Positions 31,789 through 60,342 of a stretch of DNA of 64,000 nucleotides are shown piece by piece (position 1 is the stretch's first letter; the number at the start of each line of letters is the position of its first letter). A program made the position numbers and the translations under genes. This stretch comes from Candidatus Magasanikiibacteriota bacterium. GTDB taxonomy: Bacteria; Patescibacteriota; Patescibacteriia; Magasanikbacterales; GWA2-37-8. The notes beneath the pieces are model-generated. The model worked only from the letters and a program-made list of their open reading frames with translations. It searched no databases and was not told the origin of the DNA. The stretch spans positions 44,279-108,278 of the forward strand of contig JAGOQR010000003.1 of the NCBI GenBank assembly GCA_017991415.1, written 5' to 3'.

Positions 31789-33042
31789 TTATTTTTTATT
31801 AATATTTTTTATAACTGATTCAATTTCACCGTCTACTACACGTATATTTAGTTGCTCACCAGGCAATACGTCCTTAACACTTCGCACTACCCTATCTTTT
31901 ACAAAGACTAGGCTATAGCCTAACCGTAGTTGCCGCTCTGGATTATTTGCTTCTACCAAACGAACCAAATTAGCTATCTTATTACTAGCGGCCTTAAGCG
32001 CAGTTCCGTATAGCTGGTTAATTTCTTGTGGCATAGTATATATATATCGAGCTCGAACCATGCTTAGAGCACTAACAAATGATTTTATAATTAAGTTTTG
32101 ATTATTAATAATATGATGTTCCAGTCCCGTTATAGCCACCTGTATTTTAGCAAGACTATTTTTTACAATATCTTTTACATCTTTATACGTCGCCAAAACC
32201 ATATGCAAAGCTTGTACCACTCTTCTTGCGTCCTTCTCAAGTGCATAGGTTGCTTCAAGCCACGACTTTGAGAGCAGCGCTGCAACCAGTGACGGCGTAG
32301 ACTCAGTAGCATCAGCAACAAGTGTTGCGAGCGGCACATCCTGATGATGGCCAATACCAGTTACCACTGGCACAGGAAACGCAGCGATTTCTCGCACCAA
32401 CTTTTCGTTATCAAAACCAGCCAGCGACTGCATAGATCCACCGCCCCGAATGAGCACAAGCACATCCAAATCTTCATCGCGCATAGCCCGCACACTAAGC
32501 GCCAACGCCCGCCCACATTCAGGACCTTCCACGCGACAATCTAAAATTTTAATTTTAAAACCCGATCGGCGTAAATTGTTACTAAAATCATGAATTACTG
32601 CTCCATGCACTGACGTAATAACCCCTATCTTTTGAGGAAACAACGGTAGAGGTCTCTTACGAGACAAGTCAAACAAACCTTCTTCTGCCAATTTTTTCTT
32701 TAACTTCTCATACGCTTTTTTAAGTGCGCCCTCACCTACCACCTCCATAGCATCTGCAACAAAAGACATTCTGCTAAAACGTCCACTAAAACTAGGAGCG
32801 CCTTTTAACTGCACTTCCATACCAACTTCCAAATCAACACCACTATACATGTACTTTCCCTTCCACATGATACAAGGCAGAACATCGCCTGTATCTTTAT
32901 CTTTAAGAGAAAAATAAACATGCCCGCTCGCTGGCACTTTCACCTCAGAAACTTCACCAATAATCTGGACTTGCAGTGTACCCAATGTTGAATTTATTAT
33001 TTCTATAAATTCAGAAATTTTATACGGTTCATTTTGATGCAT
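31789..33042 (-). CDS. xseA: Exodeoxyribonuclease VII large subunit
   Basis: 417 aa with an N-terminal OB-fold (GEVSEVKVPASGHVYFSLKD) and the catalytic region GRGGGS. Confidence 0.8.
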   Translation of the reverse strand: MHQNEPYKISEFIEIINSTLGTLQVQIIGEVSEVKVPASGHVYFSLKDKDTGDVLPCIMWKGKYMYSGVDLEVGMEVQLKGAPSFSGRFSRMSFVADAMEVVGEGALKKAYEKLKKKLAEEGLFDLSRKRPLPLFPQKIGVITSVHGAVIHDFSNNLRRSGFKIKILDCRVEGPECGRALALSVRAMRDEDLDVLVLIRGGGSMQSLAGFDNEKLVREIAAFPVPVVTGIGHHQDVPLATLVADATESTPSLVAALLSKSWLEATYALEKDARRVVQALHMVLATYKDVKDIVKNSLAKIQVAITGLEHHIINNQNLIIKSFVSALSMVRARYIYTMPQEINQLYGTALKAASNKIANLVRLVEANNPERQLRLGYSLVFVKDRVVRSVKDVLPGEQLNIRVVDGEIESVIKNINKK

Positions 33043-33069
33043 AAACTATAATTACAGCAACAGGTAATT

Positions 33070-33528
33070 TTATTTGTTCTTATAGCGGCCAGGCCAACAT
33101 TTGGGGCAGCTTGGATGGGTACTATCCTTATAAAATATATGACCACGGCTACAAATCTTTTGTGCAGCCTTTTGAAGTTCTTTAGCTTTAAACAAAACAA
33201 TTTTTTTCACCAATGTGTACGGAATCGACTTATCTAACAAAAACTGAATCGCTCCTTTTGAAACCTTAAATCCTACTAGCTCTTTTTCAAAAGCAGCGTT
33301 TGCAGAAGGTGTTGCATAAAAACCAATATGTTTTTCCCAGGCCGCAAAATAGACTAAGGGCTTACCATACAATTTAAAGGCTGGCATACCATAACTTATC
33401 GATCCTACTGCCTTTGGAGCAAACGCCTCTACAATTTGTCTTATTTTTTTCAAAATAATCCGAGTACCTTTTGGAGCATTTTGAATATACTCACCTATGG
33501 TATTAATTGTTTTTTTATTTTTTAACAT
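33070..33528 (-). CDS. DUF1801/YdhG-like protein
   Basis: 152 aa with a DUF1801-like core (YGMPAFKLYGKPLVYFAAWEKHIGFY) plus a C-terminal Cys/His zinc-ribbon-like tail. Confidence 0.45.
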   Translation of the reverse strand: MLKNKKTINTIGEYIQNAPKGTRIILKKIRQIVEAFAPKAVGSISYGMPAFKLYGKPLVYFAAWEKHIGFYATPSANAAFEKELVGFKVSKGAIQFLLDKSIPYTLVKKIVLFKAKELQKAAQKICSRGHIFYKDSTHPSCPKCWPGRYKNK

Positions 33529-33577
33529 ATATCAGGTTATTATGGAACGGTTTTTCAACGTAGAATAATTATTCTAG

Positions 33578-33650
33578 CAAATACTTAAAATGAGCGCCCA
33601 TTAATTACAATTAGTGTAAGGGTTTCTGGAACTTCTGTCTAGACATAAAT
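33578..33650 (+). repeat. Direct repeat copy A flanking the GC-rich cassette
   Basis: aaaatgagcgcccattaattacaattagtgtaagggtttctggaacttctgtctagac aligns at about 80% identity with copy B at 34845-34936 (ttacaatcagtgtaaggatttctggggattctgtacagac). Confidence 0.6.
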
Positions 33651-33731
33651 TTAGGATACTTGGATCAGGTTTGAAATTTAAAATAAAAAAAACGAAACAG
33701 TAAAACAGGTGTTTGGAAAGCAATTCTTCCA

Positions 33732-33760
33732 TTGACAAAACACTATTTTTATGCTAATAT
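33732..33760 (+). promoter_or_regulatory. Near-consensus sigma70 promoter driving the GC-rich lipoprotein gene
   Basis: TTGACA (33732-33737), a 17-nt spacer, then TAATAT (33755-33760), all in AT-rich DNA. A leader of about 100 nt contains the SD AAAGGA. Confidence 0.6.
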
Positions 33761-33863
33761 AATGTGTTCTTTTTCAACACTTGATACCCTTATCGACCCC
33801 AACTTTACCGAGGCTAATGCTATCGGTGGGTCTGAGGGGTTTCAAGCCACGAAAGGAATCGAC

Positions 33864-34640
33864 ATGACCCGCATCTCGATCATTCTCGCCGCTGCCTTCG
33901 CCGTCGCCGCCTGCACCGAGACCGAGGTGGTCGTCAACGACCACTACGGCGTCTGCACGGCCGACGAGCAGTGCCCGGGCACCTACGTGTGCCAGGACGG
34001 CATCTGCATCGAGCCGGAGGAGCCGCCACAGTCGGTCGCGGACTGTGCGACCTACGAGTGGGCCGGTCGGGAGACGCCCTGGCACTGCTGGTGCGAGGGC
34101 GACAACTGCATCGGCACCGATGCCGAGCTCCCCTGGGAGTGCCCGCTCGACTTGCTGGACTCCGATCCCAACGACGGCGTCTGCGGTGTGCAGTGCCACG
34201 ACCACTTCTGGCTCGACGCCCAAGCGGTCGGTCTCGACCCCAACACCTCGCCCCCGTCCCTGACCTTCGACGTCGGTAACGGTGTGGTGACATGCACCCA
34301 GTACGTCGACATCTCGCCCTTGCGCTTCGTGCGCAGCCAGACCGAGATCTACCTGGATGCGCCCGACGGCCGTACCGTCCAGATCGACTATCGGATGACG
34401 GCCCCGGCCATCGTCGAGGTGTTCATCCGGTACAACGAGGGTGCCCAGTGGATCAACGGCGGACTTGCCTTCACCTACACCTTCCCGGGCGGCCCCACCA
34501 ACATCGGTGGCGTGCGGTACGGGTTCCGGCCGGAAGAGTCATTCCCTTCGGGGACCACCACCTACTGGAAGCTCGAGGCTCATCGGTGGATCAACAACGA
34601 GCTGTTCGACACCTGGACGGGGAGCATCACGCTCCCCTGA
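33864..34640 (+). CDS. Cysteine-rich secreted lipoprotein of unknown function, encoded in a compositionally foreign (about 65% GC) segment
   Basis: ATG at 33864 preceded by AAAGGA. Lipoprotein signal MTRISIILAAAFAVAAC. At least 12 Cys in the N-terminal half (CTADEQCPGTYVCQDGICIEPEE; WHCWCEGDNCIG). Codons are strongly GC3-biased, unlike all neighbouring genes. The opposite-strand and other-frame ORFs listed in the track here are high-GC artefacts. Confidence 0.7.
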   Translation: MTRISIILAAAFAVAACTETEVVVNDHYGVCTADEQCPGTYVCQDGICIEPEEPPQSVADCATYEWAGRETPWHCWCEGDNCIGTDAELPWECPLDLLDSDPNDGVCGVQCHDHFWLDAQAVGLDPNTSPPSLTFDVGNGVVTCTQYVDISPLRFVRSQTEIYLDAPDGRTVQIDYRMTAPAIVEVFIRYNEGAQWINGGLAFTYTFPGGPTNIGGVRYGFRPEESFPSGTTTYWKLEAHRWINNELFDTWTGSITLP

Positions 34641-34646
34641 ACACTG

Positions 34647-34744
34647 CCTCTGGCTGCGCTCTCACGAGAGAGCGCAGCCCCATCCGAGTTGTTTGCACAA
34701 CAGAATAATTAATTTGTTATGTTGTGCAAACTCGGATGCAGAGG
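34647..34744 (+). repeat. Composite inverted-repeat structure at the 3' end of the GC-rich gene
   Basis: An outer pair cctctg...cagagg encloses a GC hairpin (ggctgcgctctc-acgag-agagcgcagcc, 34652-34679) and a 19-22 bp AT-richer imperfect IR (catccgagttgtttgcacaaca ... tgttgtgcaaactcggatg, 34681-34738). Confidence 0.6.
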
Positions 34745-34757
34745 AAGTATAAATTTA

Positions 34758-34792
34758 AAAAGCCCTTCTTATTCAGAAGGGCTTTTTAGTTA
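34758..34792. terminator. Bidirectional rho-independent terminator
   Basis: aaaaagcccttc-ttattca-gaagggcttttt. Confidence 0.65.
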
Positions 34793-34844
34793 AAAAACTA
34801 AACAATAAAAATTAAACCTTACGAAACATGTCAACTAAAATCTA

Positions 34845-34936
34845 GGATTTAAAAGATGACGCACTGCGGGCCACTCGGGTTAAGTACCCGTTAGTTACAA
34901 TCAGTGTAAGGATTTCTGGGGATTCTGTACAGACTT
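34845..34936 (+). repeat. Direct repeat copy B flanking the GC-rich cassette
   Basis: Matches copy A, with an internal GC-rich insertion of about 23 bp. Lies between the cassette terminator and a hypothetical gene next to tRNA-Ser. Confidence 0.6.
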
Positions 34937-35034
34937 AGAGTCGAGGCACGTGGGTCTAGCCTGGATTTTAACAGGTCATCTAATAAAGAACGCCTAATAT
35001 TGAGAGCATGTGATAGTATCCGAATTGGAACAAT

Positions 35035-35475
35035 TTAACTGTTGACAATTGCAGAATCCGGTAATGATGGAAAATCTTTTAATTTTATTGTTACCTCTTT
35101 ATCAAGAAAAGCGCGGGTAAGGCGATGCATGCCATTAAATATTTGTCCATCCACAGTTCTCCATATGGGATTGGATAAATCTGCATGCTGGATTGTTGCT
35201 ACGTGATCGGCGTAGGCTTGATTTTGTTTTGCTGCGTCCCAATCTTTAAGAAGATCGTATGGGCCTAATAAATCCCCGTTTCTATCAGTCCAATAATAAT
35301 TCCCTTCAGATACTGCTTCAGCTAATTCATTCAATGGCACTTCTCGCGTAGGAAGCAGTTCAGCGACGCGCTCTAAAAGTTCAACATTATAAAGCTGGTC
35401 TCCAACAGTGGTTGTTTCAAAGTTATGACCATGCAATCCATCTTGATATCCAGCTGGCGGTTTTCCTTCTAGCAT
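35035..35475 (-). CDS. Hypothetical protein (147 aa) adjacent to tRNA-Ser
   Basis: The ORF-track version (35035-35586) runs through the tRNA-Ser gene. The start is placed at the internal Met (MLEGKPPAGYQDG...). No recognisable motif. Confidence 0.4.
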   Translation of the reverse strand: MLEGKPPAGYQDGLHGHNFETTTVGDQLYNVELLERVAELLPTREVPLNELAEAVSEGNYYWTDRNGDLLGPYDLLKDWDAAKQNQAYADHVATIQHADLSNPIWRTVDGQIFNGMHRLTRAFLDKEVTIKLKDFPSLPDSAIVNS

Positions 35476-35499
35476 AATTATTTGATTTTTTAAAAAATG

Positions 35500-35584
35500 C
35501 GGAGAGGGTGGGATTCGAACCCACGAGGCCTTGCAGCCTACCGCTTTTCGAGAGCGGCACTTTCGACCACTCAGACACCTCTCC
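35500..35584 (-). tRNA. tRNA-Ser (anticodon CGA), type II tRNA with a long variable arm
   Basis: Reverse complement is GGAGAGGTGTCTGAGTGGTCGAAAGTGCCGCTCTCGAAAAGCGGTAGGCTGCAAGGCCTCGTGGGTTCGAATCCCACCCTCTCCG. Anticodon loop CTCGAAA. Long variable arm. Confidence 0.85.
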
Positions 35585-35625
35585 ATTTTAAATTGCTCTT
35601 ATCCTAACACGAATTAGCTGGACCT

Positions 35626-36249
35626 TCAACGATTATCCAAACTAGCCCATAAATATAGCGAAGCGGTCGTGCGATACGGTTGCCAACGAGAAGATAGTTG
35701 TTTTAATTTTTTAGGAGATGGATCCTTACGTAAACCATACAATTTCTTAACTGCATTTCGCAAACCCAAATCACCAAAAGAAAATACATCTGGCCTACCA
35801 AGCGAAAAAATCAAAAACATTTCTGCCGTCCATCGCCCGATTCCTTTTACTTTTACAAGCATCTCAATTATTTCTTCGTCTGTTTTTTTATTTACCTGCC
35901 TAAAATCCAATGCGCCCTCCTCAAACGCAGTGGCAAGATTTTTAATATATGAAGCCTTAGAACCAGACACTCCTACCGATCGAAGCTCCTCATTACTTTT
36001 TGCCAAAACCTGAGCAGGCAAAGGAAATTTACCCTGAGGGAACAAAGCTTTGAATCGTTTTATAATTGTACTAGCTGCCTTGCCTGAGAGCTGTTGGCTT
36101 ATAATAGCGTCGGCCAAAGATTCAAAATAGTTTTTGCTCGAACGCAAAATTGTTGGCTTAGCCAACAAAAATAGTGTGGCAAGTAGCGGATCTGCTTTTT
36201 TTAAAAAAACCATAGCTGGCGACATAGATACTTTTTTCTGTACTGACAT
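35626..36249 (-). CDS. DNA-3-methyladenine glycosylase II-like (HhH-GPD superfamily, AlkA-type)
   Basis: 207 aa with an HhH-GPD motif region (VKVKGIGRWTAEMFLIFSLGRPDVFSFGDLGL). Confidence 0.7.
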   Translation of the reverse strand: MSVQKKVSMSPAMVFLKKADPLLATLFLLAKPTILRSSKNYFESLADAIISQQLSGKAASTIIKRFKALFPQGKFPLPAQVLAKSNEELRSVGVSGSKASYIKNLATAFEEGALDFRQVNKKTDEEIIEMLVKVKGIGRWTAEMFLIFSLGRPDVFSFGDLGLRNAVKKLYGLRKDPSPKKLKQLSSRWQPYRTTASLYLWASLDNR

Positions 36250-36250
36250 A

Positions 36251-37801
36251 TTACAATTCTATACACGGTTTTACTTTATTATTAAACCCTTCAAGCTGCG
36301 CAATTTGATCTACGGTAATATTTTGCAATTTTTTATCTCGCTTATTCTCTGGGTACATTACTTCATAAAAAAGCGGCATCATACTATCTACTCCGTTTTG
36401 CAAAGACATACCCTTGGCTGACTCTACGATTTTGTTCCAGGTGCTATTTGTACCATAGAGCATAAGATCTAAGCCCGTAGCTTGGAATAAGCTACCATTT
36501 TTATCTTGCAAAAACGCAAGCGCGATATCCCCGCCCATAATCTTGGTTTCTATTTGTTTACACATACCTGCTTCCTCGCTTTCTCCTATCTCCTGGAGCA
36601 ACTGCAGATACCCTGCTTTCATAGCAGTTAAGTAACTTGGCTGAGAAAAACCACCTAGACAAGTTACGCCGTAATAAAACGAAATAAGTATAAAGGTAAG
36701 GAGCATAGAGGGGACGAGCTCTCCTGACTGTAATTTTTCACTAATAACCAAAGCTGTTAAGGGCACACAGAAAGTACCGTCCGCATTTATTAGCCCTCCA
36801 TTTTTTTTCCATAATCGCTGCCTATACTTTTCTCCTTTGGGTTTTGCCCAAAACAAAAAAGTTCCAATATCATTTTTTGAAAAAGCGCCAATAATGCCTT
36901 CAAAATATTTTATCAGTAGCTGCTGATATTTGGCATTAAAAATAATTTGATTAACGATTGTATTCTGATTGAGGTGATACTTGATAAGTAAATTACTTGT
37001 AATTGTTTCCTGATCAATGTAGACAAGATTTGGTAATTTTTTGTACGGGGCAAACAACTGTTGCCAAAACCTGAAGTTAGTCTTGGTAATTTGTTCAGAA
37101 TAATTCTTGCTCTCTAACACATCAGACTGACCATAAACTACATCAATTAATCTTGTAATTTTTTCTACTGTCTCATGACGAATGAGACCGTCTAACACTT
37201 TGTGCTTTAGCATTTTTTTAATACGGGTTAAATCTTTTTGCGTATAACCCTCAAGTCCATAGACAGCCCGCTGACTATCTTTGGCTGGGAAAAAAGACAA
37301 ACGATGCAGCTCTTGAGTGTTCCCTATATCACTATGAAAAATGAGTCCACGTGGAAAAGAAGAATTGTTAAGCGAGACATTAGCGCAGGACAAAACAATA
37401 ATATTTTCTAAATTAAAATCTGCTTGGGGTGTGGCAGTAATTAAATTAGCATTTAAAAAAAATGGATGACAAATTGGCCCATGATGATCGACAGTGGAAA
37501 CAAAATAATTTTGCTCTAACTGCCTTTCGACACTGTGCGCAACCTCAACACCAAGCAGCCGCTCTACCTGCTCCACAACAACAGCAACAAATTCTGCCTG
37601 ACGATCTTTTGCAGCAGGGCTCTTCTCAATTTCTTTATACCGCAAGGCATGGTCATACAATGTTTCATTGCCTTTCTTTTCAAGAGTTTCTTGAAGGGCA
37701 GGGGCGGTACGAAGCACTTGGTTTTTAAGTTGCGCAAAATCTAACCCAAGCTGGCTTGAATCAATAAAATTTCTTTCTCGGGCTATATTCATAGAAGACA
37801 A
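36251..37801 (-). CDS. Hypothetical protein (516 aa), likely co-transcribed with the upstream ATP-grasp gene
   Basis: Long ORF without recognisable motifs (no P-loop, no Mur-ligase GxxGKT). Ends 2 bp before alkA-like and starts 16 bp after the ATP-grasp gene. Confidence 0.4.
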   Translation of the reverse strand: MSSMNIARERNFIDSSQLGLDFAQLKNQVLRTAPALQETLEKKGNETLYDHALRYKEIEKSPAAKDRQAEFVAVVVEQVERLLGVEVAHSVERQLEQNYFVSTVDHHGPICHPFFLNANLITATPQADFNLENIIVLSCANVSLNNSSFPRGLIFHSDIGNTQELHRLSFFPAKDSQRAVYGLEGYTQKDLTRIKKMLKHKVLDGLIRHETVEKITRLIDVVYGQSDVLESKNYSEQITKTNFRFWQQLFAPYKKLPNLVYIDQETITSNLLIKYHLNQNTIVNQIIFNAKYQQLLIKYFEGIIGAFSKNDIGTFLFWAKPKGEKYRQRLWKKNGGLINADGTFCVPLTALVISEKLQSGELVPSMLLTFILISFYYGVTCLGGFSQPSYLTAMKAGYLQLLQEIGESEEAGMCKQIETKIMGGDIALAFLQDKNGSLFQATGLDLMLYGTNSTWNKIVESAKGMSLQNGVDSMMPLFYEVMYPENKRDKKLQNITVDQIAQLEGFNNKVKPCIEL

Positions 37802-37816
37802 AACTTGGTCGACTTA

Positions 37817-39007
37817 TTAAAACGCATCAATATACTGCTCTACATAATCCCACAAAGGTTGGGCCACATTATTTGTCGCCCCTTCAACAGGATCATAGTG
37901 CAAATTAATAAACGGTAAACCATTACACTCTATAATGCCCCATTTTTGCTCATCTGGATTACGAGAAATATCGTTAATAATAAAATCAAAACCAATTACA
38001 GGGTCGGCAACTACTTCCGCTGCTTTTTCTAAAATTTTTATAGTTTCTGGATGGGTAATACTCGTTACTTCCGCTGCACAGCCCCCATAGGAAACGCCGA
38101 TTTTTTCTAGCAGATCAATAGTCTGATTGTTCGGCAGAACGCTCTCCAAGTTTAATCCAAGTCTAGCTAGAAAATTTTTATGCTCTTCTGTGACCACTAC
38201 ATCTTTAACACCTGTTGGCTTGTTGGAATTTTTTATTTCAATTAAACGAGCAACGGAACTATTACCATCACCTGTAATTCGTGGCGGATCCCCGCGTAAT
38301 ACACCCGCTACTTTTCCGTTTATGACGGTACCGCGATAGACACTACCCACCAAATGTTCTTCTAAAATTACCCAGTAGCAGAGCTGTTTGGCTGACTCAA
38401 ATGCTTTTTTTAAATCTTCTTCAGTATATATGTGCGTGGTAGTATGTCGCCCTCGTGAACCAAGACGCGGCTTTATAATGACTGGCTTTTCTAATTCTTT
38501 AAACTTGTTGAGCAGTGGTGAAAAACGAGAAAATACTCCGCCTCGAGCTACAGGCAAACCCTCATCTTGTAAAGTTTTTTTAAAAAGCGCCTTATCATCC
38601 AACCACCATTCGGAGTTTTTTGGGGTACGAAGCGGCCTTGGCAACCCGTTAAAATAAATCTTTTTACCATGTACAGTCGCCCCATACAAGTCGACTACTT
38701 TTCCAAATGCATAGAAATTATGCATAGGTATACCACGACGCAGAGCCTCTTGCCAGAGCACCTTGCCGCGCTGATTTACTGTTTTGCTTGGATCATTATT
38801 AACCTTAAGCACACCCACGGCGCTATACAACCACACAAAAAATTTAAGTAGCGGATTGGTAATAGCCGCTGCCAATCGAGATAAAAAACTTTTTGACAAC
38901 CAAACATGCATTGGCGAACTAAAAACCGAGCTCGTCTGACTAAACCACGAAAGAGCGTGTGATACTTGATTATTGCCACAGGCTAAACAGCGTTGTTTTT
39001 CAGACAT
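37817..39007 (-). CDS. ATP-grasp ligase resembling the N-terminal ATP-grasp half of cyanophycin synthetase (CphA), without a Mur-ligase domain
   Basis: 396 aa. Segments VIIKPRLGSRGRHTT, VINGKVAGVLRGDPPRITGDGNSSVARLIEIKN and GVSYGGCAAEVTSITHPETIKILEKAAEVVADPVIGFDFIINDISRNPDEQKWGIIECNGLPF are collinear with CphA ATP-grasp regions (VVKP..G..G.GV, VVNGKLVAAA.R.P..V.GDG..TI.ELI and NLSTGG.A.DVTD..HP.N...A..AA.AIGLDIAGID...DIS.P). Confidence 0.55.
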   Translation of the reverse strand: MSEKQRCLACGNNQVSHALSWFSQTSSVFSSPMHVWLSKSFLSRLAAAITNPLLKFFVWLYSAVGVLKVNNDPSKTVNQRGKVLWQEALRRGIPMHNFYAFGKVVDLYGATVHGKKIYFNGLPRPLRTPKNSEWWLDDKALFKKTLQDEGLPVARGGVFSRFSPLLNKFKELEKPVIIKPRLGSRGRHTTTHIYTEEDLKKAFESAKQLCYWVILEEHLVGSVYRGTVINGKVAGVLRGDPPRITGDGNSSVARLIEIKNSNKPTGVKDVVVTEEHKNFLARLGLNLESVLPNNQTIDLLEKIGVSYGGCAAEVTSITHPETIKILEKAAEVVADPVIGFDFIINDISRNPDEQKWGIIECNGLPFINLHYDPVEGATNNVAQPLWDYVEQYIDAF

Positions 39008-40541: not shown

Positions 40542-43262
40542 TTAAAATCTATAGTATATATCAAACTGTTCGGTAAGTTTCTCAACTCTTTTTACACTAG
40601 ATTCTAGCGCTTCTTTAAATCTGCCAAAATTTAAATTGTCTTTTTCTACGGCAATTAGAGCAATAATCTCATCAACTTCTTGAGTTATTTTTAATTTTAA
40701 ATCCTGCAGATGTGTGTCATTAAGTAACAAACTTCTGGTCGGGATAAGTGCTTTAAATCCATCTGCCTCCTGCTCAATTAACCTAAAAAAAGTACTTTCT
40801 AAAGCCTCGACTGCTGCCTGAATATCCGAATCTATTTTTTGAAGAAGTTCAGTTTGCGCTTGGCTTTGAGGATCTTTTTTAGAAAAATCTTGTTTAATAA
40901 ATTTTCTTACAAAAAGTTCGAGTTCTTTTTCAGAGAATCCAACCCGCAAAGTCTTTGCGCTATCTGAATATAGCTGATCAAATTTTTCTTCAGAAAAACC
41001 TCGGCGCCGAAACTCGTAAGGCAAAATATTAATAAGGTTCTCTGGAGTAAATCCAACAAGTTTTATTAAACGATCTTTAAGAGTAAACTCTATTTTTTCC
41101 AGTTCTTTTTCTTTTTTATGCCTTTCTTTATCTGCCTCTATACCTGGATCGGGGTCAGGCTCTGTAGCAATACCTGAATCAACAAGCTCCTTCGAAAGCG
41201 CCTGACGCATTTTATCAACAGCTCTTTTTAAAATCTGCCTAACTCTTTCACGACCAATTCGCAACCCCCCTCTTTCTCCTATCTCTTTTAAAGTAGCGCC
41301 ATTAATGGTTTCTATTAAAATAAAAGCCTCGATTGGCCTTAAATCTTCAAAGGCTTTCAGAATAGCTCTGTTAAGAAGCGGATCATTTACATCTTCCAAG
41401 CGATATACTTCATTTAAACCTGGGCCAAGCAGAGTTCTCAAACCTTGGCGCGCTTCTATAGAATCTGGGTACTTGACCAACTCATTAGCTAAATGCTCAA
41501 AATCCTCTGATACTGAACGCTCGCCAATGGCTGCACTTATAACTTCACGGCGCTTATCTTTTTTTGGTAATAAGTAGCCTTTATCGGCCTGCAAAAGTAA
41601 CATTGTCCCACGCTGCTCAGGAAAAAACTCTGTAACCATATTCTTAAAATCCTCTTTATTTTTCACTCCTATGCTCCACAACAAAATACGTCCATAGCCA
41701 GTAAAGGCTGGATGTTTAAAAAATGTATTTTGGAAATTACGATAAGAATGCAGAACTTCCATTAACTGTGCATCCTCTGTTTCGTTGGTATTATCATTTA
41801 TAAGCCCTGTGTTAATAATTTCTCTTATCTGAGCTTGGTTCCCCCTGTCAATTTTTACAGCGCCTAGCCCCCCGTATTCTCGTATATTAGCCACCAATCT
41901 AACATTCACATTTTCCACTCTTTCTGGAAGAGGCAGAACTTTACTTTCTGTACTTTGATTATCTTTTTTTACTGTTCCTATCACCTTGCCAACTGGCAAA
42001 TCTACATCGTCACGATCTAATAATATATTGGGTGGAAGAAGCGGGGGATATTTTAACTTACTAGGAACAACTGAATAAATCTTAGCTATTTTTTGATCTT
42101 CAAATTGGCTTTTAGTTAAAGGGCGGGTAAATTTTTGACCAGCTCGGACAGGTGAAGTTGTAGGATCAAAATCAATCAATAATTTACAGCGCTCGGCATC
42201 CCATCCCTGCAACAGAACTCTGACCGTAATCAAAGTATCATATTTACCATCTAAATAATCCTGAAGTTTCTTTGCGCGATCTTTAGTATCTTCCGTAATA
42301 ACTGCGACTCGCACTGCTTCTTCCGGCCGCAAACGCTCTAAATACGCTCTAGCATCTTCGGCTTGTTGTTTAACACGAAAACATATTAATCCTGGTATAT
42401 CTTTATTTCCTTTATCATACCTAATTTTTTCCATGAGTTTAAACACTGGCAAACCTGTTATAAGACGGCCCATATCTTCTGCTTTATAATCCCCGCCACT
42501 CAAATCTATTTCTGACCCATCTAAATCTAGCTCATACACCCAATATTGAAAAGGGGAAAGCATATCAAGACTCACTGCTTCGGGTATAGATATACTACCA
42601 ATAAGATTTGGATAGAAATGTTCAAGCTTTCGTGATTCACTATAATCAGGCGTACCAGTAAGTGCTATACGAATAGCATGTGGGTCAAACTCTTCACGCA
42701 TAATACGTATTCGACTTTCTGTAGTAGATTCATGGCCTTCATCTGCAAAAACAAGAGGCTTAGTTCTCAGCTCTACCGGCAAACTATCTTGAGTACGAAT
42801 ATTTGCTTGTGAAATCTGATAGGTCGCAACGATTATATCAGCCCCCTCTAAATCCCCCTTTTCTTTACCCGTATACTTAACTATTATTTTCCCAGGTAGT
42901 AATTCTTCAAGCTCTTTAACGGCCTGATCAATCAGATTAGTTGAAGGCGCAAAAAATACCGCACCCAAATCAGTGCGACGCAATATCTCTGCAGCTATAG
43001 TTGTTTTGCCCGTACGAGGCGCAGAAACAACTCTGGCCATATGCATATCTACAGAATCATTACCCTGCTTACGAGAATTAACAACTTCTTTGAAGTATTC
43101 AACAAAACGATCCACAAAATCTACTTGGTGAGACCTCAGCTCACGGACTTCGTCACCTTTTTCTTCTACAGACAATCTGGCCGCAGCTAACTCTTGCTGC
43201 TCATCTACACCAGACTGTTTAACTGCAACCTCTCCATGATATGGACTTAGGCGTTCTGACAT
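40542..43262 (-). CDS. SF2 (DEAD/DEAH-like, ResIII-type) helicase fused to a C-terminal sigma70 region-4-like HTH domain
   Basis: 906 aa with Walker A APRTGKTTIA and motif II FADEGHES. Near the C-terminus, LLNRAILKAFEDLRPIEAFILIETINGATLKEIGERGGLRIGRERVRQILKRAVDKMRQ matches the sigma70 region-4 pattern (L..RE..VL..R.GL.....TLEEIG..LG..RERVRQIE..AL.KLR). Confidence 0.6.
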   Translation of the reverse strand: MSERLSPYHGEVAVKQSGVDEQQELAAARLSVEEKGDEVRELRSHQVDFVDRFVEYFKEVVNSRKQGNDSVDMHMARVVSAPRTGKTTIAAEILRRTDLGAVFFAPSTNLIDQAVKELEELLPGKIIVKYTGKEKGDLEGADIIVATYQISQANIRTQDSLPVELRTKPLVFADEGHESTTESRIRIMREEFDPHAIRIALTGTPDYSESRKLEHFYPNLIGSISIPEAVSLDMLSPFQYWVYELDLDGSEIDLSGGDYKAEDMGRLITGLPVFKLMEKIRYDKGNKDIPGLICFRVKQQAEDARAYLERLRPEEAVRVAVITEDTKDRAKKLQDYLDGKYDTLITVRVLLQGWDAERCKLLIDFDPTTSPVRAGQKFTRPLTKSQFEDQKIAKIYSVVPSKLKYPPLLPPNILLDRDDVDLPVGKVIGTVKKDNQSTESKVLPLPERVENVNVRLVANIREYGGLGAVKIDRGNQAQIREIINTGLINDNTNETEDAQLMEVLHSYRNFQNTFFKHPAFTGYGRILLWSIGVKNKEDFKNMVTEFFPEQRGTMLLLQADKGYLLPKKDKRREVISAAIGERSVSEDFEHLANELVKYPDSIEARQGLRTLLGPGLNEVYRLEDVNDPLLNRAILKAFEDLRPIEAFILIETINGATLKEIGERGGLRIGRERVRQILKRAVDKMRQALSKELVDSGIATEPDPDPGIEADKERHKKEKELEKIEFTLKDRLIKLVGFTPENLINILPYEFRRRGFSEEKFDQLYSDSAKTLRVGFSEKELELFVRKFIKQDFSKKDPQSQAQTELLQKIDSDIQAAVEALESTFFRLIEQEADGFKALIPTRSLLLNDTHLQDLKLKITQEVDEIIALIAVEKDNLNFGRFKEALESSVKRVEKLTEQFDIYYRF

Positions 43263-43349
43263 ATATAAATGATTTCAGATTATTAATCTCAGTATTCTGA
43301 TTCAATTCTAACACATAATACTGCTTGGTCAACTAGCAACATTCCTAAA

Positions 43350-45488
43350 TTAATTTTTCTTCAAATGACTAATAACAGCTCTAATCTCACCGTAGCTAAC
43401 ATCTTCACCCAAAGATTCTTTTAGAGGGAAAATCGGAAAATGGCCGTATTTTTCTACGGCACCGCTTATACGAGAAATTTTCTCATCCGATACAAGATCT
43501 GTAATTTTTAACCTGCCGTCCTCAACATAAAAAATAAGGTGTGCTTCGATCGTAGAAGGACTGAGTTGCCGAATACTTGCAATCTCAGCAACAGTATTAC
43601 CTTTTTTAAATAAATCTAAAGAGACTGCTCGCGTATTATTTTCCGTTTTTTGATCTGTTTTGGAACGAGACTCTCGTTTTGGAATTTTTTCTAAAATTTT
43701 GGAAACTAAATTGCGATCTTTGCAATAAGAAACAACTGCACTCAAAAAGTCTTGACCGTACTTGGCAATTTTAACTTCACCGAAGCCTGATATTTTTCTC
43801 ATCTCATCTTGGTTTTGCGGCAGATAAGTTGCCAGTTCGAGCAGCGTAGCATCTGAAAAAATAATGTAAGCTGGAACTTGTTCTTGTGTTGCAATATGAG
43901 CACGCAAGTCTTTGAGGGTCACCAATAATTCTTTTTCAAATGGCAATTCCTGATAAGTAGTGTTTTCTTTTTTACCAACAGCTCTTATCATCGTCACTTT
44001 TTCGGTACCATTTAAAACAGCGGTGCTTTTTTTGGTCAATTTAATTACAGGATATTCTGCGCCGCTTTGCTCCAAATAACCAAGGCCAATCAAATTTTTG
44101 ATATAGCTAAATAAATCTTCCTTGGAAATATCTGCACCAATACCGTAGGTAGAAAGCTGCCTATGATATAATTTTATTTTTTCTGATTTTGATCCACGTA
44201 AAAAATCTACTAGGTAGGTTAGGCCATGAGGAGTATCAAAGCGAGCTACCGCGGAAAGAATTTTTTGCGCAACTACCGTACCGTCAAATTGTTCAAAATT
44301 TCCTAGACACACATCACAACTTTGGCAATTACCCTCTATCTGCTCGCCAAAATAAGCCAAGACCTTTTGTCGACGACATACTGACATTTCGCACAAGTCT
44401 GCCATCTGGGCTAATTTATGAAGCATTATTTTGGACTGCTGCGGATTACCTTCAATCGTGGCAAACTTACGCAACTTAATGACATCTCCTCCGCTATAAA
44501 AAAGAATAGCTTCACTTTTAAGCCCATCTCGGCCTGCTCGACCGGTTTCTTGATAATAACTTTCAATATTTTTTGGCAGATCAACATGGGCTACAAAACG
44601 AACATTGGATTTATTAATCCCCATACCAAACGCAATAGTCGCTACCATTATTTTTACTTCATCTTTCAAAAACTGTGCCTGATGACGACTTCTTTTTTCT
44701 TGGCTTAGGCCTGCATGATATGGAAGCGCTTTAAACCCATCGGCAGTTAATTTTCGAGAAAGATCTTCAGTAGACTGACGCGATAAAGCATAAATAATCC
44801 CAGCGTCATCGTGGTGCTTAATAAGATAATTTAAGAGCCGTGGATACATGTTGCGCTTAGGCTCAATATAATAATAAATATTTTTTCGATTAAAGCTTGA
44901 GATAAATGTTTGTGGATTTCTAAGAGCAAGCTTAGCAACAATATCGTCGGCTGTTATTTTATCAGCCGTCGCAGTAAGCGCAATGGTAGGAACACCAGGA
45001 AATTCTTTTTTGAGACGAGCCAATTCGCGATATTCTGGTCGAAAATCATGCCCCCAGGAAGAAATACAGTGCGCTTCATCGATGGCAAAAAGTGATATTG
45101 GATATTTTTTAATAAAATTTAAAAACTGCCCTTCACCAAACAGTCGTTCTGGCGCAACATATAATAATTTAAGCCGACCAGCTTCAAGCGCACGATAGAT
45201 ATCCGAGCGCTCTTCGGTCGTAGTAGAAGAATTTAAATAAGCGGCTTCGATACCATTTACTCGTAACGCATCGACCTGATCTTTCATAAGCGCAATGAGC
45301 GGTGAAATCACGATAGTAAGGCCTTTAAAAATCAAAGCTGGAATCTGATAGCAAAGCGACTTACCTCCGCCGGTGGGCATTAGAACAAAAGAGTCTTTTT
45401 TATCTAGGGTACGCAAAATTATCTCTTCCTGATTAGCACGGAAAGAATTATAACCAAATTTATTTTGAAGAATATCAAGGGGAACCAT
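43350..45488 (-). CDS. recQ: ATP-dependent DNA helicase RecQ
   Basis: 712 aa with the DEAH box (FAIDEAHCISSWGHDFRPEY), the RecQ zinc-binding Cys cluster (C...C..C..C) and C-terminal HRDC-like regions. Confidence 0.85.
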   Translation of the reverse strand: MVPLDILQNKFGYNSFRANQEEIILRTLDKKDSFVLMPTGGGKSLCYQIPALIFKGLTIVISPLIALMKDQVDALRVNGIEAAYLNSSTTTEERSDIYRALEAGRLKLLYVAPERLFGEGQFLNFIKKYPISLFAIDEAHCISSWGHDFRPEYRELARLKKEFPGVPTIALTATADKITADDIVAKLALRNPQTFISSFNRKNIYYYIEPKRNMYPRLLNYLIKHHDDAGIIYALSRQSTEDLSRKLTADGFKALPYHAGLSQEKRSRHQAQFLKDEVKIMVATIAFGMGINKSNVRFVAHVDLPKNIESYYQETGRAGRDGLKSEAILFYSGGDVIKLRKFATIEGNPQQSKIMLHKLAQMADLCEMSVCRRQKVLAYFGEQIEGNCQSCDVCLGNFEQFDGTVVAQKILSAVARFDTPHGLTYLVDFLRGSKSEKIKLYHRQLSTYGIGADISKEDLFSYIKNLIGLGYLEQSGAEYPVIKLTKKSTAVLNGTEKVTMIRAVGKKENTTYQELPFEKELLVTLKDLRAHIATQEQVPAYIIFSDATLLELATYLPQNQDEMRKISGFGEVKIAKYGQDFLSAVVSYCKDRNLVSKILEKIPKRESRSKTDQKTENNTRAVSLDLFKKGNTVAEIASIRQLSPSTIEAHLIFYVEDGRLKITDLVSDEKISRISGAVEKYGHFPIFPLKESLGEDVSYGEIRAVISHLKKN

Positions 45489-48114: not shown

Positions 48115-48933
48115 TTACACTATTACCAGTTTACCTTTTATATTTTTTATAAAACCATCTTTTTCTAGACCAGAAATAATTTTTTCTACCAGTTCATTAT
48201 CACCACCTAATATACGCTCAACATCTTTCTTGGCGCACGGTTTCTCTAAAATAAATCGCAGCACTTGGGCCCTTTTCTGACGGAAAGACCCGATAAATTT
48301 TGTCTGCTTAGCATAATGAATACTTTTCTTATTAGGATTACCAGTTTTTTTGAGCAATACGCCATAATCAAATAAAGCCCAATACCACTCGCGGGGATTT
48401 TTGGCATCAAGCGTCTTTTCTACTAAGGGCAAAATTTCCTTATCGCTTACCTGCTCTATACCCTTGAAGAAAAAATGAATAAACACCGAACGGATATTAG
48501 TTTCTATAAACACAGTGGGTATATTCCATGCAAAGGCCATAATATCTCCAGCTGTAGCTTTACCAATACCAGGAAGCTCAAGCAAGGTATTTAAATCTTT
48601 AGGAAATTTACCGCTATACTCTTTTACAAGAGTTTCCGCACACTTCTTTAAATACAAAGCACGACGGTTGTAGCCAAGACCTTGCCATTCTTGTAGCACA
48701 TCATGAAGTCTTGCCTTAGCAAGCATTTCTACAGTTGGAAATTTTTCTAAGAAGGATTTATATTTTGGCTCTACCCGATAACTCTGTGTTTGTTGCAGCA
48801 TGATTTCAGAAACCAAAATTTTGTACGGGTTACGAGTTTTACGCCACGGAAGATTACGTTTATTTTGTTTGTAATGAGACCAGATAGTTTTTTTAAATTC
48901 TAGAATATTCATAACAGATAAAGTGTATAACAA
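48115..48933 (-). CDS. HhH-GPD adenine DNA glycosylase (MutY/Nth-like)
   Basis: 272 aa. KILVSEIMLQQTQ and LPGIGKATAGDIMAFAW match the MutY N-terminal catalytic domain. Confidence 0.65.
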   Translation of the reverse strand: MLYTLSVMNILEFKKTIWSHYKQNKRNLPWRKTRNPYKILVSEIMLQQTQSYRVEPKYKSFLEKFPTVEMLAKARLHDVLQEWQGLGYNRRALYLKKCAETLVKEYSGKFPKDLNTLLELPGIGKATAGDIMAFAWNIPTVFIETNIRSVFIHFFFKGIEQVSDKEILPLVEKTLDAKNPREWYWALFDYGVLLKKTGNPNKKSIHYAKQTKFIGSFRQKRAQVLRFILEKPCAKKDVERILGGDNELVEKIISGLEKDGFIKNIKGKLVIV

Positions 48934-53276: not shown

Positions 53277-53912
53277 TTAATTTTTAATAACTCGTACCAC
53301 TACTCCATTGAGCAAATACCCAGATGTTTCTAGATCGTCTTTGTGCATAATAATGGGCGGGAAGTCTTTGGTCGATTCTGATACCAGCCGGATTTCTTGT
53401 TTTTTATCGTCTTTAAAAAACTTTTTAAAGTTGGCCATGCCATCTATGATTGAGAGTACATAGTTGCCATTTATTGGCCGTTGCTTACTATCTACAATTA
53501 CATAGTCTCCGTTTTCGATACTGTCGCCATCTATATTTGCCTTATTGAGCGAATCCCCCACTGCACGGACCGCGATAAGCCCTTCGGGTTTTGATTTCTG
53601 CAGCGACCGCGGCGAAATTTTGAGATATCCGGTAATGTCTTCCTGCGCTAGCTGCGCGGCCGGACCACAGTTGGCCGCACCGACAATGGGAATGTTAAAG
53701 AAACTATCCACGACAAAGGCTTTTGGTTTGGCAACGCGTTGTTTTTTGTGCGTATCCAGATACAAGAGCCCTTTTTTCTTTAACTGTTCCAAGTGGTAGA
53801 TAACAGTCTGTGGATTGGGAATACCGAGCTCTCGGCCAATCTCCCGAAAATTCATTTTGGAAATATCTTTTTTCTTGGCCAGGTCTATAATTTTTTCTTG
53901 GTTCTCATTCAT
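53277..53912 (-). CDS. lexA: LexA repressor
   Basis: 211 aa with an N-terminal winged HTH, an Ala-Gly cleavage site (VGAANCG) and S24 peptidase Ser/Lys motifs (GDSLN...K). Confidence 0.85.
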   Translation of the reverse strand: MNENQEKIIDLAKKKDISKMNFREIGRELGIPNPQTVIYHLEQLKKKGLLYLDTHKKQRVAKPKAFVVDSFFNIPIVGAANCGPAAQLAQEDITGYLKISPRSLQKSKPEGLIAVRAVGDSLNKANIDGDSIENGDYVIVDSKQRPINGNYVLSIIDGMANFKKFFKDDKKQEIRLVSESTKDFPPIIMHKDDLETSGYLLNGVVVRVIKN

Positions 53913-54032
53913 ACAAGCATTGTTAATGAGTTAGAAATTTTACCTTTCATTCTAGGCGCAGAGAAGGATCCTTATACTTAGTAACCAGTACCATGCTTAA
54001 GGGATTCTTCACTTTGCTCAGAATGATAAAGA

Positions 54033-54062
54033 TAGTATAACACACATTATTTATCTTGTCAA
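54033..54062 (-). promoter_or_regulatory. lexA promoter (consensus-like sigma70)
   Basis: Read on the minus strand: TTGACA, a 17-nt spacer, then TATACT. Upstream is a dyad ACACT-N6-AGTGT (54074-54089). Downstream of the -10 is TGAGCAAAGTGAA (54008-54020), sharing a 9-mer with the recA upstream region. Confidence 0.55.
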
Positions 54063-54118
54063 GAGATTTATTGACACTATTGACAGTGTTTATATTATTA
54101 ACAATAATATAGCTAAGA

Positions 54119-54160
54119 TAAAACAAAATAACCACCTGGAATGGTGATTATTTTGTTTTA
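54119..54160. terminator. Bidirectional terminator after the large FN3 surface-protein gene
   Basis: aaaacaaaataaccacc-tggaa-tggtgattattttgtttt. Confidence 0.55.
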
Positions 54161-54186
54161 TCGAGTGGATAACTATTTTAGTTTTA

Positions 54187-59391: not shown

Positions 59392-60189
59392 CTACAAATC
59401 AACCTCAACTGCTACCGGACAATGGTCGGAGCCAAGAACATCTTTATGGATTGTCGCTTTGGTAACTTTTGATACTAATTTTTTACTGACAAAGAAGTAA
59501 TCAATTCTCCAGCCAACATTACGGGCACGAGCGTCACCAAAATGACTCCACCATGTATAGTGCCCATTGCCTTTGGTAAAAATACGGAAAGTGTCCGCAA
59601 AACCACGCTTAATTATATTATCTATCCCTTCTCGTTCCTCGTACGTAAAACCGTGTCCGCCGATATTTTCTTTGGGCCGCGCCAAATCATCTTCGGTATG
59701 AGCAACGTTTAAGTCGCCACAAAACACAACTGGTTTCTTTTTTTCCAACTGGCACATATATTCCAAAAATGCCGGATCCCACTGCTTGTGGCGTAATGGA
59801 ATGCGAGAGAGATCTTCTTTGGCATTAGGTGTATATACGGTAACAACGTAGAATTTTTTGAATTCAAGAACCGTGACTCGACCCTCGGCATTAGCATCAC
59901 CATACTTATCACTCACTAGTTTATATTTCTTGGCAATATCTTCTGGAATACCCAACACTACCGAAATCGGTTTAATTTTGGTAAATATAGCCGTCCCGCT
60001 GTACCCTGGTCGCTCTGCCGAATTCCAATACTCTTCATAGTCCGGTAAATCAACTTCGCTCTGATGCTGCTTGGCTTTTGTTTCTTGCAAACACAAAATA
60101 TCGGGTTTGTACTTTTCAATAAAAGGCAGGAACATGCCCTTTTTGTGGACTGCCCGAATTCCGTTGATGTTCCAAGACATTATACGCAT
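59392..60189 (-). CDS. xth: Exodeoxyribonuclease III (AP endonuclease, Xth family)
   Basis: Start reassigned to [13 protein letters not shown]. The ORF-track N-terminal extension runs through tRNA-Ser. Xth motifs include LQETK, GDLNVAH and the C-terminal SDHCPV. Confidence 0.8.
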
Positions 60190-60205
60190 GGTGCTTTTAA
60201 AAAAT

Positions 60206-60291
<86 letters not shown>

Positions 60292-60342
60292 AAAAAGTAT
60301 GATTAGATTAACATAAAGAAATTGAGAAATCAATAGTCATAG

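Follow-up and report, generated by a model that had tools for sequence, protein, structure and literature searches.

The window, the 64,000-nucleotide stretch of a Candidatus Magasanikiibacteriota contig analysed here, carries on its minus strand a complete coding sequence that starts with ATG and encodes 906 amino acids followed by a stop (Table 1). The earlier note on this DNA had called this open reading frame without giving its strand, and translation bore the call out. The product represents a conserved, uncharacterised family encoded by stand-alone genes and is built of four parts: an SF2 ATPase core, a middle domain, a sigma70-type region 4 and a lineage-specific tail. Directly upstream on the same strand, across a gap of 87 bp, lies recQ (43350-45488; TIGR01389, 756 bits). 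The window also contains rpoB (2873-6316), whose product has a canonical flap-tip helix, together with xseA, genes for two HhH-GPD glycosylases, and lexA. The GC content of the helicase gene, 0.38-0.39, matches that of its flanks, and its composition shows no anomaly; by this measure the gene is native to the genome.

Table 1. Features of the helicase gene and of the gap that separates it from recQ
Feature	Coordinates in the window	Strand	Evidence
Complete coding sequence: SF2 motor, family-specific middle domain, sigma70-type region 4, helical tail	40542..43262	-	ORF translation
RecA-like lobe 1, residues 41-206	42645..43142	-	Pfam ResIII (E=5.5e-16), plus DEAD and SWI2_SNF2
RecA-like lobe 2, residues 251-400	42063..42512	-	Pfam Helicase_C, residues 292-377
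Family-specific region, residues 401-612	41427..42062	-	Nearly invariant residues across members
Sigma70-type region 4, residues 628-695	41178..41381	-	Pfam Sigma70_r4, profile search, hhalign, fold match
C-terminal helical tail, probably coiled-coil, residues 696-906	40545..41177	-	Long helices in AF2 model, pLDDT mostly <65
Promoter-like site, TTGACC-16 nt-TAGAAT with upstream TG	43305..43332	-	Consensus scan, 10/12

A 100% identical protein (P0001) is recorded as 'MAG: DEAD/DEAH box helicase family protein [Candidatus Magasanikbacteria bacterium]' and comes from several sources. Because the same sequence occurs on contigs of two separate Logan assemblies and in an NCBI record, and because the architecture is seen in more than 100 clusters, we rule out an assembly or fusion artefact.

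The N-terminal part had been described as a ResIII/DEAD-like ATPase with GKT and DEGH motifs, and this description holds. Matches to ResIII, DEAD and Helicase_C all exceed the Pfam gathering cut-offs, the last with 24.0 bits against 23.5. The two RecA-like lobes carry the full set of SF2 motifs that we looked for: Walker A (APRTGKTT, with GKT at residues 85-87, 43002-43010), motif II (DEGH, residues 174-177, 42732-42743), motif III (TGTP, residues 202-205, 42648-42659) and motif VI with its arginine finger (QKFTRPLTK, residues 376-384, 42111-42137). Residues G85, K86, D174, E175, Q376 and R380 are invariant among 53 family members, and lobe 1 is modelled by AF2 with pLDDT >90. Foldseek searches with the motor returned RadD, SauUSI, LlaBIII, XPB/Ssl2, Hef and Snf2-type proteins (E ~1e-12 to 1e-13, identity 12-21%); the repair protein RadD was the nearest structural neighbour and XPB also ranked high, whereas the best PDB matches by sequence were SauUSI and XPBII. 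Judged by motifs and predicted fold, the protein thus has an SF2 ATPase core of XPB/RadD/ResIII-like type whose catalytic motifs are all intact.

With XPB/Ssl2, RadD and the ResIII-type restriction motors (SauUSI, LlaBIII, HsdR) the protein shares the two RecA lobes, motifs I, II, III and VI and a general design in which a distinct recognition module tethers the motor. None of these relatives, however, has a region 4 or the middle domain, and the window protein in turn lacks their nuclease, Zn-finger, DRD and methylase partner. Pfam detected neither a nuclease nor a methylase domain in it, and no match to SNF2-rel_dom. The RecQ Zn-binding, RQC and HRDC domains, which Pfam and NCBIfam found in the upstream RecQ, are likewise missing from it.

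In the C-terminal half, Pfam Sigma70_r4 (PF04545) scored 29.0 bits against a gathering threshold of 24.1 when the whole protein was searched (E=7.5e-7, residues 654-687) and 31 bits when the C-terminal fragment was scored alone. The peptide on which the proposal of a helicase-sigma fusion had been based, IETINGATLKEIGERGGLRIGRERVRQILKRAVDKMRQ, corresponds to residues 650-687. Alignment with hhalign against E. coli sigma70 covered residues 535-611 only, with a probability of 98% (E=1.2e-13), and a profile of the family's C-terminal module matched region 4 of a primary sigma factor, B. subtilis SigA 284-371, at E=6e-25. Among the 60 PDB profile matches listed for this module all were sigma factors, with SigA the best. 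The AF2 model contains four helices (628-639, 643-653, 658-663 and 671-695; pLDDT 77-96) in the fold of sigma region 4 and superimposed on T. aquaticus sigma4 (1ku3) with an rmsd of 2.5 Å over 58 columns (Foldseek probability 1.00). The helices of region 4.1 are followed by a helix-turn-helix, made up of helices 3 and 4, that begins with TLKEIGE (41274-41294) and includes the recognition helix RERVRQI (residues 671-677, 41232-41252). A LuxR/GerE-type or generic helix-turn-helix, which the earlier note had held out as an outcome that would undo its proposal, is ruled out by the SigA-led profile matches and by Pfam, where the window protein gave no GerE/LuxR match at E<=0.1. We conclude from these comparisons that the domain is by homology a complete region 4, comprising both 4.1 and 4.2, whose origin lies in a primary (group 1) sigma factor, and the proposed fusion of an SF2 helicase to this module stands.

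No larger piece of a sigma factor was found. Pfam returned no match to Sigma70_r2 or Sigma70_r3 even at E<=1, the hhalign alignment to sigma70 ends at residue 535, and the PDB profile search also speaks against region 2 or region 3 in the middle domain. Whole sigma factors did head the Foldseek matches of the C-terminal module, with weak and unconvincing values (E 0.04-0.1, TM ~0.2). As regions 2 and 3 are absent, the protein cannot act as a sigma factor; it is sigma2 (regions 2.1-2.4) that binds the beta' coiled-coil, recognises the -10 element and takes part in melting. Compared with primary sigma factors (E. coli sigma70 ~535-613; T. aquaticus sigmaA, 1ku3/1ku7), the family shows homology over 4.1, 4.2 and the preceding linker, has the same fold, retains the RER(I/V)RQ motif and in some members extends the homology into the tail, but it lacks sigma1.1, sigma2 and sigma3, and its region 4 lies behind a 600-residue ATPase. 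Nor does this domain form the very C-terminus: it had been placed near that end, and ~210 amino acids of helical tail, modelled with low confidence, follow it. The tail is poorly conserved and lineage-specific (mean pairwise identity 0.14), aligns with close relatives alone, and gave a single, sub-threshold Pfam match, to DUF4327.

The -35 hexamer is read by sigma70 through recognition-helix residues R584, E585, R586, R588 and Q589. The window protein keeps all five, as R671, E672, R673, R675 and Q676. Across the 53 members, retention is highest for R586 (47/53), followed by R588 (36/53), Q589 (34/53), E585 (33/53) and R584 (27/53), and the equivalent of sigma70 T572 is kept in 42/53. The domain as a whole is less constrained than the motor, with a mean pairwise identity of 0.26, no better than that of the middle domain, against 0.44-0.47 for the motor. 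The copy in the window is among the more diverged: relative to primary sigma factors it has lost the RFGL loop (5 residues), its HTH turn is longer by 2 residues, and it scores only 29 bits, so its DNA specificity could have drifted. Some nine members on scattered branches of the helicase tree keep the C-terminal tail of sigma70 (KLRHPSRS..LR.F), at up to 63% identity to the E. coli protein; most members, the window protein among them, lack this motif.

What had been taken for a long linker between motor and region 4 is in fact a conserved domain. Residues 401-612 comprise an extended segment with PPLLPP, followed by a helical domain whose beta-hairpin bears the conserved FQNTFFKHPAFTGYGRILLW (residues 510-529, 41676-41735), and F510, F515, H517, G522, G524, L527, L528 and P548 are nearly invariant in the family (AF2 pLDDT ~55-92). 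We detected no relatives of this domain: it gave no Pfam match at E<=1 and, searched alone as a profile, no match in the PDB, and the hhalign alignment to E. coli sigma70 stays outside it. A word-index search with the middle domain returned a single protein of 293 amino acids, probably a fragment.

A profile search with the family recovered 355 cluster representatives at E<=1e-30. Sigma70_r4 was present in 47 of the 53 full-length members, with a best E of 5e-16, in 9 of 10 long members and in 6 of 10 atypical ones (two of these six weakly); long and atypical members revealed nothing informative in the way of extra domains. The window protein was the top match to the family alignment (A2; 1163 bits over profile positions 5-798), has motor, F..F.H..F.G.G..LL middle domain and region 4 in collinear order over its full length, and carries each nearly invariant family residue. 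Based on these profiles, the helicase-sigma4 fusion is the hallmark of a sizeable family and not the oddity of one genome.

Sequence databases already list the family, as 'DEAD/DEAH box helicase family protein'. We found no curated family with the helicase-sigma4 architecture in NCBIfam or PADLOC, which gave weak, partial matches below their cut-offs, confined to the helicase or the sigma4 portions; in NCBIfam, the window protein matched sub-threshold sigma and UvrB/Hef fragments only. Full-text literature searches for such a fusion yielded nothing relevant, and these results are consistent with the earlier view that the architecture had not been described. There was no full-length match among INPHARED phages or PLSDB plasmids, and 80 IMG/VR loci contained distant helicase cores only, without region 4; these results, together with the normal composition of the gene, argue against a phage or plasmid origin.

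Gene context offers little further guidance. The adjacency to recQ on the same strand was correctly reported, but the link it implied does not hold up: in a survey of 16 genomic contexts recQ was next door in 1/16, this genome's own copies, and in 0/15 of the others. Neither the gene tables nor a BLAST comparison of all neighbouring ORFs with one another revealed a neighbour conserved across the 16 contexts. We therefore reject a functional link to recQ. Neighbours of repair type do occur elsewhere, recJ in one context (L003) and an MgsA/RarA-like AAA protein in another (L008). Since the gene stands alone, without a conserved neighbour, any targeting function has to reside in the protein itself.

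Taken with the domain composition, this leads us to infer that the most likely role is that of a translocase aimed by region 4, as a targeting module, at -35-like DNA or at the beta flap of RNA polymerase. The roles suggested in the earlier note, promoter targeting or an anti-sigma-like function, are plausible. Binding of sigma4 to the -35 element and to the beta flap is established (PMC4598750, PMC6755090). At a rough probability of 40%, we favour the first of these targets, in which region 4 would anchor the enzyme on TTGACA-like -35 DNA and the motor would remodel promoters. Retention of all five recognition-helix residues makes anchoring on -35 DNA the most likely mode, and the nearest structures of the motor, SF2 enzymes of the dsDNA-translocase type, would be in keeping with it. 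From such an anchor the motor could use ATP to pull on the adjoining duplex or to move along it; promoter occupants might be remodelled, with holoenzyme or sigma evicted or recycled, or else the topology of promoter DNA might be altered. The logic would be that of a site-anchored translocase, by analogy with Mot1 on TBP, XPB in TFIIH and the Type ISP/III restriction motors. Counting against -35 reading, conserved basic residues in the recognition helix would be expected for non-specific DNA binding as well; the divergence of the window copy and the conservation of region 4, no higher than that of the middle domain, weigh on the same side.

A second possibility, which we hold more tentatively, is that the motor docks on RNA polymerase in the manner of RapA, Mfd or HelD, sitting by the RNA-exit channel and the upstream DNA, where it could clear R-loops or act on stalled polymerase by pushing, recycling or dislodging it. 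Region 4 was captured entire, with its 4.1 helices, and the sigma4/beta flap contact is the second largest sigma/RNAP interface (PMC4598750, PMC6755090). The sigma70 C-terminal tail touches the beta-flap tip, according to Bonocora et al. 2011 as cited in PMC6755090. The occurrence of this tail in about nine scattered members argues for docking on RNA polymerase, instead of or besides DNA reading, and the degree of sigma70-like constraint on these members would fit a retained polymerase contact. The canonical flap-tip helix of the host RpoB is also compatible with docking, and the neighbours recQ, recJ and the MgsA/RarA-like gene have a loosely repair-like flavour. Against this reading, the tail motif is absent from most members, the window protein included; in a single-chain comparison, hydrophobic pocket residues were indistinguishable from fold-core residues; and linkage to genes for RNA polymerase or transcription is not conserved. 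The protein is also neither RapA nor Mfd by sequence: NCBIfam and Pfam found in it none of the domains specific to these families, neither the RapA N-terminal domains with SNF2_N nor the RID, TRG motif and UvrB-homology module of Mfd, the RapA model of NCBIfam matched the neighbouring RecQ alone, and weakly, and no Mfd model was among the matches listed. RapA docks through its N-terminal domains and Mfd through its RID, neither using a sigma domain, and the likeness to RapA/HepA, Mfd and HelD may be one of function, with an ATPase brought to promoters or to RNA polymerase so as to remodel or recycle the polymerase.

It is also conceivable, though unlikely, that the protein is a RadD/XPB-like repair or recombination helicase whose sigma4-like helix-turn-helix serves as a general or site-specific DNA-binding appendage, independent of promoters and RNA polymerase. 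RadD and XPB are indeed prominent among the structural matches, the window holds genes of repair type (recQ, xseA, those for the two HhH-GPD glycosylases, and lexA), two other contexts have such genes as neighbours, and the adjacent RecQ, which ends in an HTH_40 domain (Pfam), provides a precedent for a helicase with a C-terminal helix-turn-helix. RecQ nevertheless belongs to a different helicase family (RecQ/RQC/HRDC), and its HTH_40 is not of the same kind as region 4 (hhalign probability 0.8%). The repair-type neighbours are not conserved, the appended domain is specifically a primary-sigma region 4 and no generic helix-turn-helix, and a generic helix-turn-helix would not easily account for the sigma70-type tail kept by lineages scattered across the tree.

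We consider it very improbable that region 4 acts as a decoy that titrates a regulator which binds sigma4, be it an anti-sigma factor, an activator or an Rsd-like protein, with the ATPase tuning the exposure of region 4. PhyR shows that a sigma-like domain can be re-used in a non-sigma protein (PMC4598750), one family member matched a PhyR_sigma-like model, and the surface positions R596 (25/53), K597 (29/53) and R599 (42/53) are fairly well retained. PhyR, however, joins sigma2-like and sigma4-like domains of ECF type to a receiver domain and is a decoy for the anti-sigma factor NepR, whereas in the present family a lone sigma4 of primary type is attached to a motor; neither an anti-sigma gene nor a partner gene is linked to the helicase gene, and a decoy needs no invariant, costly SF2 motor. 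We set aside, as equally remote, a motor for defence against phages or of restriction type (Type III/ISP/IV or PbeA-like) with the helix-turn-helix as sensor, which the ResIII-type core fold, the structural matches to SauUSI and LlaBIII and weak PADLOC matches (PbeA, E=3.7e-11, and a Type IV REase model) might suggest, since those PADLOC matches are partial and confined to the helicase lobes, nuclease and methylase domains and conserved partner genes (16 contexts) are lacking, contexts are housekeeping-like with native composition, and the architecture is missing from plasmid and phage collections.

Sigma70-dependent initiation is usually regarded as ATP-independent, and the known motors associated with RNA polymerase, RapA, Mfd and HelD, use dedicated docking modules of their own. 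A conserved motor that carries the -35-reading, flap-docking domain of sigma itself suggests an ATPase aimed by competing for sigma4 sites; if true, this would add transcription or repair factors of a new kind. In its boldest form, which we regard as rather doubtful, the proposal would give Patescibacteria, Myxococcota and Desulfobacterota an ATP-driven remodeller of promoters or RNA polymerase, whose borrowed sigma4 competes for the -35 element, the beta-flap tip helix or both while a translocase resembling TFIIH-XPB or Mot1 evicts sigma or holoenzyme, or loads or clears RNA polymerase. Such a remodeller would amount to ATP-dependent control of sigma70-type initiation, without a described bacterial counterpart, and could bear on how Patescibacteria, with their minimal genomes, handle transcription, transcription-replication conflicts or repair conflicts. 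Because the partners of sigma4 and the assays for it are well established, the family offers a simple handle for testing. Were region 4 a mere DNA-binding appendage, the family would still be a clean and previously undescribed one with a new conserved middle domain.

In a scan of the region for promoter consensus sites the total did not exceed that in shuffled sequence, so the site listed in Table 1 is to be read as a consensus match only. It was the top-scoring site of the scan, lies in the gap between recQ and the helicase gene, ~42 nt ahead of the helicase ATG, and is a possible candidate for the gene's own promoter.

The window encodes a 906-aa protein in which an SF2 helicase is joined to region 4 of a sigma70 factor (sigma4). 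This architecture had been proposed in an earlier note from the sequence alone, and it is now confirmed: the GKT (residues 85-87), the DEGH (residues 174-177) and the quoted peptide IETINGATLKEIGERGGLRIGRERVRQILKRAVDKMRQ (residues 650-687) are all present, and ResIII, Helicase_C and Sigma70_r4 all exceed their Pfam cut-offs. The note had named the lack of a significant Sigma70_r4 hit, or a better fit to LuxR/GerE or another HTH, as grounds for abandoning the idea; the Sigma70_r4 match is significant and GerE/LuxR is unmatched in the protein in Pfam. Database entries include an identical protein, named 'MAG: DEAD/DEAH box helicase family protein [Candidatus Magasanikbacteria bacterium]', and contigs of two separate Logan assemblies also encode it, so we rejected an assembly artefact. 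In NCBIfam and PADLOC no match was better than sub-threshold or partial, and those obtained lay in the helicase lobes and in the sigma4 segment; we found no description of the architecture in the literature.

Positions of the features discussed; residue numbers refer to the helicase-sigma4 protein, other coordinates to the window
Feature	Position	Strand	Details
helicase-sigma4 gene	40542-43262	minus	single ORF, ATG to stop, 906 codons
two RecA-like lobes	residues about 20-400		pLDDT >90 (AF2)
ResIII	residues 41-206		E=5.5e-16, above curated cut-off (Pfam); DEAD and SWI2_SNF2 matches overlap
Helicase_C	residues 292-377		24.0 bits vs cut-off 23.5 (Pfam)
middle domain	residues about 400-612		PPLLPP segment, then helical domain with beta-hairpin
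sigma4	residues 628-695		
Sigma70_r4	residues 654-687		29.0 bits vs cut-off 24.1 (Pfam)
helical tail	residues 696-906		low model confidence (AF2); common to close relatives only
recQ	43350-45488	minus	TIGR01389, 756 bits; RQC, HRDC, C-terminal HTH_40; bona fide
DNA-repair genes (recQ included)	31789-33042, 35626-36249, 43350-45488, 48115-48933, 53277-53912	minus (all)	
rpoB (RNA polymerase beta subunit)	2873-6316	minus	1147 aa; canonical flap-tip helix

The fusion defines a family and is not a freak of one genome. Nine relatives came up in a word-index search, and each has Sigma70_r4. Their alignment was used for an exhaustive HMM search, which yielded 355 cluster representatives at E<=1e-30; the majority of full-length matches extend through the sigma domain, to about profile position 690. 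Sigma70_r4 was detected in 47 of the 53 aligned full-length members (best 5e-16), in nine of ten unusually long members and in six of ten with broken alignment, two of the six weakly. Related loci come from Uhrbacteria and other Patescibacteria, Myxococcales, Kofleriaceae, Polyangiaceae, Desulfobacteraceae and unclassified MAGs, and one member sits on a 12.8-Mb contig. Neither 80 IMG/VR loci nor the phage and plasmid collections searched contained the architecture.

Queried alone against the PDB, the window segment gave weak matches (E 0.01-0.5), nearly all to sigma factors. A profile of the family's C-terminal module matched B. subtilis SigA residues 284-369 (E=6e-25), followed by many primary sigma factors and then RpoS and SigB, and hhalign against the E. 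coli rpoD product aligned sigma70 residues 535-611 (98% probability, E=1.2e-13) and nothing upstream of residue 535. Modelled sigma4 and T. aquaticus sigma4 (1ku3) superpose at 2.5 A. Together, the SigA match, the hhalign alignment and the superposition show that a complete region 4 of a primary-type sigma was captured, comprising 4.1, 4.2 and the linker before them. The protein has neither sigma2 nor sigma3 and cannot serve as a sigma factor. The sigma4 of one relative, P0101, is strikingly sigma70-like (63% identity to E. coli sigma70), and about nine of the 53 members keep the sigma70 C-terminal tail; in a neighbour-joining tree built on the helicase core they are scattered, which suggests that the tail is ancestral and was retained repeatedly. 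The window protein falls in a long-branch Patescibacteria clade with more eroded sigma4: its RFGL loop is deleted, its HTH turn is two residues longer and the tail motif is absent. It retains R671, E672, R673, R675 and Q676, equivalent to sigma70 R584, E585, R586, R588 and Q589.

The SF2 motor is intact, and an AF2 model of the protein built with the 53-sequence alignment has a mean pLDDT of 79. G85, K86, D174, E175, Q376 and R380 are invariant in that alignment, and the nearest solved structures are RadD, SauUSI, LlaBIII (a Type ISP enzyme), XPB/Ssl2, Hef and Snf2-type motors, at 12-21% identity. These residues and structures make the motor a dsDNA-translocase-like SF2 enzyme that, judging from conservation, is under selection to stay active. 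What the earlier note took for a long linker is a middle domain conserved across the family and novel; Pfam at E<=1 was empty for it and the PDB held no sequence relative. The family's top conserved motif, F510..F515.H517..F520.G522.G524..L527 L528, sits on its beta-hairpin.

The sigma4 HTH binds the -35 element, and sigma4 also binds RNA polymerase via the beta-flap tip helix (PMC4598750, PMC6755090). In the helicase, sigma4 is probably the targeting module. We favor, at a probability of about 0.4, a reading in which it would anchor the enzyme on -35-like DNA, and the anchored motor would act on flanking duplex and remodel promoter complexes, because no other sigma-specific feature is kept as well as the recognition-helix residues, all of which the window protein has. 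A close and only somewhat less probable rival is that the helicase would dock on core polymerase at the beta-flap tip and work like RapA or Mfd; retention of the sigma70 tail in scattered lineages favors it, and the window genome's rpoB has a canonical flap-tip helix. Since sigma4 naturally docks on this helix, the window itself holds a candidate cognate partner sequence. Anchoring at -35-like DNA and flap docking are not mutually exclusive, and the protein would be a targeted SF2 motor, possibly one associated with RNA polymerase.

As the earlier note had observed, recQ lies directly upstream on the same strand; the gap is 87 bp. The association does not hold more widely: among 16 genomic contexts recQ precedes the helicase-sigma4 gene in the window genome only, and all-against-all comparison of adjoining ORFs found no shared neighbor. 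The gene is a stand-alone unit without partner genes, and its composition is native. The gap contains a good promoter-like TTGACC-16-TAGAAT with an upstream TG, a consensus match only. The 64-kb window also carries xseA, two HhH-GPD glycosylases and a LexA-like repressor that combines an S24 peptidase with a LexA DNA-binding domain, and relatives of the helicase adjoin recJ (locus L003) or lie near a RarA/MgsA-like AAA protein (L008). Because the repair-gene linkage is not conserved, this proximity may be coincidence. That the protein is a repair helicase whose HTH is generic is an improbable reading. A PhyR-like sigma decoy and a defense motor are each very unlikely.

At L003, in another Patescibacteria genome, a gene at 5243-6022 (minus strand), two genes upstream of that for the P0004 helicase, encodes 259 aa. 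The N-terminus of this product has a sigma4-like HTH that stays below the Pfam threshold (23.2 bits) and scores 29 bits on the family sigma4 HMM; the product looks like a stand-alone sigma4-like protein. In one Patescibacteria genome, the P0044 homologue, whose sigma4 is among the family's most degenerate, adjoins a diversity-generating retroelement (RVT_1 reverse transcriptase and bAvd; L023 10338-11758).

Elsewhere in the window, a stretch at about 33000-36000, most clearly at 33732-34750, is richer in GC (0.48) than the rest (about 0.38), with ORFs that overlap in several frames; a 302-aa ORF there has no Pfam match and only a tRNA (35500-35584, minus) reaches the Rfam gathering score. The stretch may represent a foreign insert or a structured RNA not yet recognised. 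A 396-aa ATP-grasp protein (37817-39007, minus) is similar to the ligase portion of cyanophycin synthetase, with an NCBIfam E of about 1e-55 but a score far short of the cut-off for the full length, and may form a small peptide-ligase operon with the next gene, a 516-aa ORF (36251-37801, minus) unmatched in Pfam, NCBIfam and PADLOC. The region 53913-54186 (minus), upstream of the lexA-like gene, contains a TTGACA-17-TATACT that looks like a strong promoter, has a TG upstream and is preceded by a tandem repeat, CTGTCAATA / GTGTCAATA, that could be an operator. Two large proteins rich in fn3, Ig-like, PKD and lamin-tail domains (54187-57345 and 60343-62934, both minus) are probably surface proteins; the second also has an OB-fold and its gene adjoins an Exo_endo_phos nuclease gene (59392-60333), an arrangement that would suit a secreted or surface nuclease.
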